Shown: positions 60,867-61,064 of the stretch, piece by piece
Layout: each line of letters opens with the position of its first letter
Numbering within the stretch: the stretch's first letter is position 1
Assembly: GCF_003334815.1 (NCBI RefSeq)
Contig: NZ_QOWO01000006.1
Strand: one strand, 5' to 3'
Length of the DNA: 64,000 nt
Source of the DNA: Escherichia coli
GTDB lineage: Bacteria; Pseudomonadota; Gammaproteobacteria; Enterobacterales; Enterobacteriaceae
Made by a program: the position numbers and the translations under genes
Notes under the pieces: model-generated
What the model was told of the DNA's origin: nothing
Seen by the model: only the letters and a program-made list of their open reading frames with translations
Databases searched by the model: none

Positions 60867-60907
60867 GTCGGCTCCTTGAAAATGATATGAAACATTGCAT
60901 TTCATAT

Positions 60908-60923
60908 TGCATAAAGGATGCCA
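60908..60923 (-). promoter_or_regulatory. Sigma54 (-24/-12) promoter of the hyf operon
   Basis: Minus-strand TGGCAT-N7-TGCA with consensus GG/GC spacing; predicted start about 30 nt upstream of hyfA ATG 60866; hyfR in the same operon encodes a sigma54 activator. Confidence 0.6.
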
Positions 60924-61048
60924 TTCTGATTAACTCAATATATTCAATAAGTTATGTATTAACTGGATTCTGAACGGTACAAAAATGATGGTCATTAACG
61001 TTCAGCAAAAAATGGATTCGACACCCGTGTCGCAGGGGAAAGCGAGAA

Positions 61049-61064
61049 TGTGATCTTGATCACG
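61049..61064. promoter_or_regulatory. CRP-binding site upstream of hyfA
   Basis: TGTGATCTTGATCACG matches TGTGA-N6-TCACA at 9/10 positions; lies between bcp stop and the hyf promoter. Confidence 0.5.

Follow-up and report, generated by a model that had tools for sequence, protein, structure and literature searches.

What does a cAMP-CRP site do when it is centred about 160 bp upstream of a start served by sigma-54 RNA polymerase, and which elements operate between the two? The question is raised by the 252-bp spacer which, on the minus strand of the window (the whole stretch of 64,000 nucleotides of Escherichia coli DNA analysed here), follows the end of bcp and precedes hyfA, with both flanking genes as annotated in RefSeq. 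Between 60.2 and 61.6 kb, the minus strand of the window shows 100% identity with E. coli K-12 MG1655, and the spacer is the control region of the hydrogenase-4 operon hyfABCDEFGHIJR-focB of E. coli K-12.

The first gene of the operon, hyfA (60249-60866, minus strand), encodes 205 aa in the RefSeq annotation and starts with an ATG at 60866-60864. The gene hyfR (48155-50170, minus strand) encodes a sigma-54 enhancer-binding protein, and focB (47285-48133) lies downstream of it at the operon end. A previous reading of the DNA, made from the letters alone (the sequence-only reading), had proposed that the activator is encoded by the operon itself, and a gene for an FhlA paralogue is indeed present there. 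HyfR matches the FhlA equivalog model with 642 bits, which is under the model cut-off of 830 bits, and we therefore regard it as a paralogue of FhlA. The listed hyfR open reading frame opens with TTG, and the true start may give a shorter gene.

For hyf, both promoter and CRP site have already been mapped and catalogued, and as such the finding is known and ordinary. The sequence-only reading stands in all its elements, with minor corrections. The record on hyfA is, as we take it, made up of a -24/-12 element, a start at about 30 bp, activation by HyfR/FhlA, and a requirement for cAMP-CRP. The additions which the sequence suggests are modest and consist of the placement of a putative enhancer repeat, an IHF-like site, an invariant block, and a constant distance of 31 bp from the CRP site to the candidate enhancer. 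The published E. coli hyfA promoter (Skibinski 2002; Self 2004; EcoCyc/RegulonDB) is the same DNA, with no difference.

The sigma-54 promoter, the hyfA start codon and the CRP site

The -24/-12 element ATGGCATCCTTTATGCA occupies positions 60908-60924 on the minus strand, with its GG at 60922-60921 and its GC at 60910-60909. The two dinucleotides are 10 bp apart, as in the consensus TGGCAC-N5-TTGC, and the motif is oriented toward hyfA, 41 nt ahead of the hyfA ATG. It had been described from the sequence alone as TGGCAT-N7-TGCA at 60908-60923; the coordinates and the GG-to-GC spacing hold, whereas the spacer is N6 and not N7. The window has a single match to TGGCATCCTTTATGCA, on the minus strand at 60908-60923, and none to the N7 form. 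The exact sigma-54 string was found at least once in 20 of 100 shuffles, and the loose sigma-54 consensus gave 48 matches in the window vs 46 expected. A sigma-54 matrix based on 186 promoters was taken from a published paper, as was a 13-site FhlA matrix. The former, applied as the sequence-only reading had advised, recovered the hyfA site with 12.1 bits at rank 10 of about 128,000 window positions. Nine positions outscore the hyfA promoter on this matrix, several of which are inside hyf genes and hyfR; higher scores occur, for example, at 16391-16406, 56420-56435, 49728-49743, and 48330-48345. As the strings are unremarkable on their own, it is their position and conservation, together with binding data from the literature, that carry the case.

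Published data show that sigma-54 and CRP occupy these exact sequences. Occupancy by sigma-54 has been seen in vivo by ChIP-seq as well as in vitro by genomic SELEX. In the sigma-54 ChIP-seq study of MG1655 by Bonocora 2015, entry OS23 is ATGGCATCCTTTATGCA, with hyfA as the downstream gene, a FAT of 16, and a start predicted 31 bp away from hyfA; the table also flags this promoter as experimentally confirmed in EcoCyc. In genomic SELEX, the sigma-54 holoenzyme alone gave a peak at 92% of the maximum between bcp and hyfA, and with NtrC added this spacer had the highest peak of the genome (100%). We placed the transcription start by the rule of Bonocora 2015, i.e., 19 bp downstream of the sigma-54 motif centre, which predicts initiation at 60897 on the minus strand. 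This is 31 nt ahead of the hyfA ATG, as in the sigma-54 ChIP-seq table, and is in line with the earlier estimate of about 30 nt.

The choice of start codon for hyfA is affected by this placement. The ATG of a longer, 218-aa open reading frame (60905-60903) is at -8 to -6 from the predicted transcription start and would therefore be missing from the sigma-54 transcript, and it is not kept in Citrobacter or Kosakonia. The shorter start, which the sequence-only reading had favoured over the 218-aa frame, agrees with the 205 aa of RefSeq and with conservation. The Shine-Dalgarno sequence on which that preference was based is in place as AAGGAG at 60877-60872 (minus strand) with a 5-nt spacer to the ATG, and its GGAGCC core is invariant in the alignment of E. 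coli with Citrobacter and Kosakonia loci (A1).

Primer extension reportedly put the start 30 bp upstream of hyfA, and hyfA transcription is said to depend on sigma-54 and on either HyfR or FhlA. HyfR reportedly binds the promoter region, and optimal HyfR-driven expression is said to require cAMP-CRP, while a chromosomal hyfR deletion was reportedly without effect on hyfA-lacZ. The hyf operon is nearly silent in K-12.

The CRP site TGTGATCTTGATCACG (minus strand CGTGATCAAGATCACA) is found at 61049-61064, with its centre at -159.5 from the predicted start. The earlier description of it as near-consensus was accurate, as it matches TGTGA-N6-TCACA at 9 of 10 positions, and its distance from the sigma-54 element, given as about 150 bp, was roughly right, the centres being 141 bp apart and the gap 125 bp. 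Four CRP sites with one mismatch are present in the window vs 1.9 expected. When the window was scanned with a CRP matrix built from 106 ETEC ChIP-seq motifs, with the hyfA site left out, the hyfA site came out as the best match (19.0 of a possible 22.1 bits). The second-best match, TGTGAGCGAGATCAAA at 27835-27850, is the known xseA/guaB site in the ETEC ChIP-seq table, and the window therefore also spans guaB.

CRP occupancy is documented by published ChIP-seq in ETEC H10407 and by SELEX with K-12 DNA. In the ChIP-seq data from H10407, which is not K-12, peak 2810983 is assigned to hyfA with a motif that is exactly CGTGATCAAGATCACA. CRP genomic SELEX recovered hyfA, which was listed as a known cAMP-CRP target, and the hyf genes are CRP-regulated according to gene lists derived from EcoCyc and RegulonDB. 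With the ChIP-seq motif located at hyfA and hyfA a known target, the catabolite control that had been called plausible is supported. The centre at -159.5 does not fit class I/II geometry (near -41.5, -61.5, or -92.5 from a sigma-70 start), and the site is outside any classical CRP-dependent sigma-70 promoter.

Conservation and the elements between the two sites

Loci of the hyfA type were collected with E. coli HyfA in a scan of one genome per species, which gave 45 loci, of which 43 were scanned and none was from Escherichia or Shigella. The lack of an Escherichia/Shigella locus was seen even though the query ought to match its own genome; the closest match in the species scan was Citrobacter amalonaticus (71% identity). 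A sigma-54 motif of at least 14 bits was found upstream in 29/43 loci, mostly 38-65 nt before the ATG. Strong motifs were present in Citrobacter, Kosakonia, Atlantibacter, Morganella, Providencia, Dickeya, Pectobacterium, Sodalis, one Photobacterium, and some Burkholderiaceae. The synteny of E. coli, with bcp upstream, is found at the Citrobacter loci L002-L005 and the Kosakonia loci L006-L007.

At -158 to -160, the position equivalent to that in E. coli, Citrobacter and Kosakonia carry the CRP sites TGTGATCGCAATCACA, TGTGACTAATATCACA, and TTTGACCGCGATCACA, which score 15.8-18.7 bits and in which the half-sites are retained and the central bases vary. Among the 43 hyfA loci scanned, the CRP site is missing in the more distant taxa.

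Enhancer sites for HyfR/FhlA had been expected between the CRP and sigma-54 elements without being located, and a candidate FhlA-box repeat is found at 61019-61032. This candidate, CGACACGGGTGTCG, is centred at -128.5, has the FhlA-box form CGACAC-GGG-TGTCG, and conforms to the pattern YGWCA-N4-TGWCR about 80-170 bp upstream of a -24/-12 element. The form CGWCA-N4-TGWCG has two matches in the window vs 0.28 expected per 64 kb. Of the 31 hyfA-type loci with a sigma-54 motif, 26 have an FhlA-box repeat, exact or with one relaxed base, upstream of it, and in Citrobacter and Kosakonia it takes the form CGACAC-N3-TGCCG. The hydN and fdhF genes have it as CGTCACTAGTGTCG at about -95 and CGTCAAAACTGACG at about -105, respectively, from their sigma-54 starts. 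Judging from these sequence comparisons, the 61019-61032 repeat is most likely the HyfR/FhlA enhancer.

Across seven loci (E. coli, four Citrobacter, and two Kosakonia), the CRP centre is at -157.5 to -159.5 and the repeat centre at -126.5 to -128.5, and the two centres are exactly 31.0 bp apart in all seven. The distance of the CRP site to the candidate enhancer and to the promoter is constant within 2 bp in the three genera, with indels in the flanks.

The hyf repeat shares its register with the published 13-site FhlA matrix, on which it scores 5.0 vs 9.9 for the CRP palindrome. In the FhlA-type scan that had been suggested as a check, the best intergenic match of this matrix is on the CRP palindrome and not on the repeat. 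On an FhlA-box matrix made from 50 orthologue sites, the E. coli hyf box has 6.8 bits, whereas hydN reaches 25.0 and fdhF 14.7. The low score of hyf is mainly due to its GGG spacer and altered flank; the orthologue consensus for spacer and left flank is TCGACACTAATGACGA, and the other spacers are AT-rich. The orthologue matrix detected no second FhlA box in E. coli hyf (next best, -5.7), and a full-text literature search with the enhancer 14-mers returned nothing relevant. The degenerate FhlA box may be one of the reasons why hyf is nearly silent in K-12.

Closer to the promoter, the block TGACCATCAYTTTTGT (60979-60994, minus strand; -97 to -82) is identical at 15 of 16 positions in E. coli, three Citrobacter, and two Kosakonia loci (alignment A1), where its surroundings have diverged, and it is absent from taxa more distant than these three genera. 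It is loosely like ATGACATCGTTTTT, which adjoins the hydN FhlA box, and matches no nameable regulator motif. Possibly, the block is a second activator contact or the site of another regulator.

A putative IHF site, TAACTTATTGAAT (60942-60954, minus strand), is centred at about -51 and is the reverse complement of WATCAANNNNTTR, with 8 of the 9 specified positions matching. YAANNNNTTGAWW occurs at -50 or -51 in six of the seven close loci, and TAAC-N4-TGAT-like elements are found near -50 in Pectobacterium, Dickeya, Providencia, and Atlantibacter. Myers 2013 reports an IHF ChIP-chip signal across the region, which is of low resolution, and a Fis signal has likewise been noted.

The layout resembles that of the FhlA-activated formate regulon (hyc, hyp, hydN-hypF, and fdhF), in which -24/-12 promoters have FhlA boxes about 95-130 bp upstream. 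Unlike these promoters, hyf has its own paralogous activator HyfR, and a degenerate FhlA box with a GC-rich spacer. The likeness to fdhF extends to CRP, as fdhF has a ChIP-seq CRP site, CGTGATGGCTGTCACG, with its centre at -137.5, which is 33 bp upstream of the FhlA box (-104.5). At hyc/hyp and hydN, the scan gave no CRP-type site, the best scores being 4.8 and 2.9 bits.

A model of hyf control and its alternatives

We hold with high confidence to a promoter/operator model in which a sigma-54 promoter is combined with a HyfR/FhlA enhancer, an IHF-type bend, and an upstream CRP site; within it, the assignment of the repeat as the enhancer, the IHF site, and the way in which CRP acts are our inferences. 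In this model, sigma-54 RNA polymerase would form a closed complex on 60908-60924 and initiate about 31 nt before the hyfA ATG, solely upon contact by an ATP-hydrolysing enhancer-binding protein via DNA looping. The activator would be HyfR or, more weakly, its paralogue FhlA, most likely bound to the FhlA box at -128.5 and perhaps aided by the block at -97 to -82. Loop formation would probably be assisted by an IHF-type bend near -51. On the palindrome at -159.5, which is 31 bp or three helical turns farther upstream than the repeat, cAMP-CRP would most likely be an architectural co-activator which bends the DNA beside the enhancer or stabilises the activator. Full expression of hyf would then need relief from catabolite repression.

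At glnAp2 of E. coli and at Rhizobium dctA in E. coli, cAMP-CRP upstream of the sigma-54 promoter alters activator-dependent transcription, and in both cases CRP represses. The hyf promoter differs from these, as the reported effect of CRP is positive and the site is at -159.5, upstream of the enhancer. To our knowledge, activation from -159.5 is without a worked-out precedent. Because the 31-bp spacing is fixed though the intervening DNA has diverged, CRP and the HyfR/FhlA enhancer might form a composite enhancer of fixed register, in which CRP contacts the activator or bends the DNA; this is a tentative proposal that we think possible while leaning against it. We know of no description of CRP activating a sigma-54 promoter in that way from about -160. 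If true, such a composite enhancer could tie catabolite control to the wider formate regulon. The operator map, with CRP at -159.5, the FhlA box at -128.5, the block at -97 to -82, and the IHF-like site near -51, is testable and could, through the degenerate enhancer repeat, help account for the near-silence of hydrogenase-4 in K-12. It also makes hyf a clean system in which to study CRP stimulation of a sigma-54 promoter.

The palindrome might have a different owner than CRP. As a site primarily for FNR, of the TTGAT-N4-ATCAA family, it would give anaerobic induction, and in Myers 2013 the core GTGATCAAGATCAC at hyfA is among the predicted FNR sites with a high score (13.04 bits), earlier evidence for FNR regulation of hyfA being mentioned as well; in Kosakonia, the left half-site TTGAC is FNR-like. 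The same study calls the site “silent”, however, the wild type showing no ChIP-seq peak for FNR, and the core GTGAT-CAAG-ATCAC matches at 8/10 positions, as both E. coli half-sites are the CRP-type GTGA and not TTGA. The palindrome motif is carried by the CRP ChIP-seq peak, and Citrobacter retains TGTGA...TCACA, all of which makes a primary role for FNR unlikely. Alternatively, the palindrome could itself be the HyfR/FhlA enhancer, with CRP occupancy incidental or competitive, given that it carries the best intergenic match of the 13-site FhlA matrix (10.2 bits, window rank 26; 9.9 bits with uniform background). This score is modest in view of the matrix maximum of 17.5, and the palindrome falls to -17 on the matrix of 50 orthologue sites; moreover, what Citrobacter and Kosakonia conserve are the CRP half-sites, not TGWC/GWCA. 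We consider it very unlikely that the palindrome is the enhancer and rejected this on the orthologue-matrix score and the separate, conserved FhlA-box repeat 31 bp downstream.

It is still more improbable that the CRP site has nothing to do with the sigma-54 promoter and serves a class I/II sigma-70 promoter in the spacer or acts on bcp. The CRP sites of the ETEC study were most often about 40.5 or 92.5 bp upstream of starts, and the site is merely about 55 bp beyond the bcp stop codon. No sigma-70-like promoter was found, however, in a scan of 60800-61200 on both strands, and the site is downstream of the bcp hairpin and lost along with hyf in hyf-less strains; nor would a site unrelated to the sigma-54 promoter be expected to hold its distance so closely in three genera despite the flanking indels. 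As for the repeat at 61019-61032, a generic scan sees it as terminator-like, with a 5-bp stem followed by AATCCATTTT, and it could be taken for a small terminator or RNA hairpin and not a protein-binding enhancer. Its RNA folds no better than shuffles (-4.9 kcal/mol, z = 0.29), the Citrobacter version is unfolded (0 kcal/mol), and the change from TGTCG to TGCCG in the other genera disrupts pairing without compensation. The same repeat is also found upstream of the sigma-54 promoters of hydN and fdhF and of loci that lack this synteny. The terminator reading is hardly credible and was rejected on folding and the non-compensatory changes.

The upstream boundary and natural variation of the control region

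Just past the bcp stop codon, the minus strand holds a stem-loop (61077-61100; inverted repeat I3) whose RNA folds with -20.9 kcal/mol (z = -4.67). This is where bcp probably has its 3' end or terminator, and the stem-loop forms the upstream boundary of the hyf cassette. Its counterparts in Citrobacter and Kosakonia are followed by a T-run; the E. coli hairpin has no U-tract behind it, which may allow bcp transcription to run on into hyf. When 60700-61300 was compared with Rfam, the single match was to PhrS, within bcp and at chance level (E = 0.51).

The entire hyf-focB cassette is missing from about 1,127 of 5,426 complete E. coli genomes, e.g., those of ST131. The hyf-less genomes retain bcp and the hairpin and then continue directly with yfgO (L054:2501-2700). 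The breakpoint is at about 61066-61073, immediately upstream of the CRP site, and the control region in its entirety is therefore present or absent along with the cassette. With the bcp hairpin on one side of this breakpoint and the CRP site on the other, the CRP site belongs to hyf and not to bcp.

Two Dam GATC sites (61052-61055 and 61058-61061) are contained in the CRP palindrome. One or none of these is present in Citrobacter and Kosakonia, so Dam-linked control is unsupported by conservation. In a Dam methylation time-course paper, hyfR is among the genes with changing GATC methylation, at a site elsewhere than the CRP palindrome.

The -24 element itself also varies within E. coli. In 139 complete genomes, TGGCAT is replaced by TGACAT (window 60921; L051:478-527), and the listed examples are all O157:H7 or related strains. 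The GG is kept in O55:H7 CB9615 and 185 further genomes of the clade. As GG is invariant in 184-186 of the 186 known sigma-54 promoters, the GA would appear to be a derived change by which the hyf promoter has been naturally knocked out in one sublineage of O157:H7.
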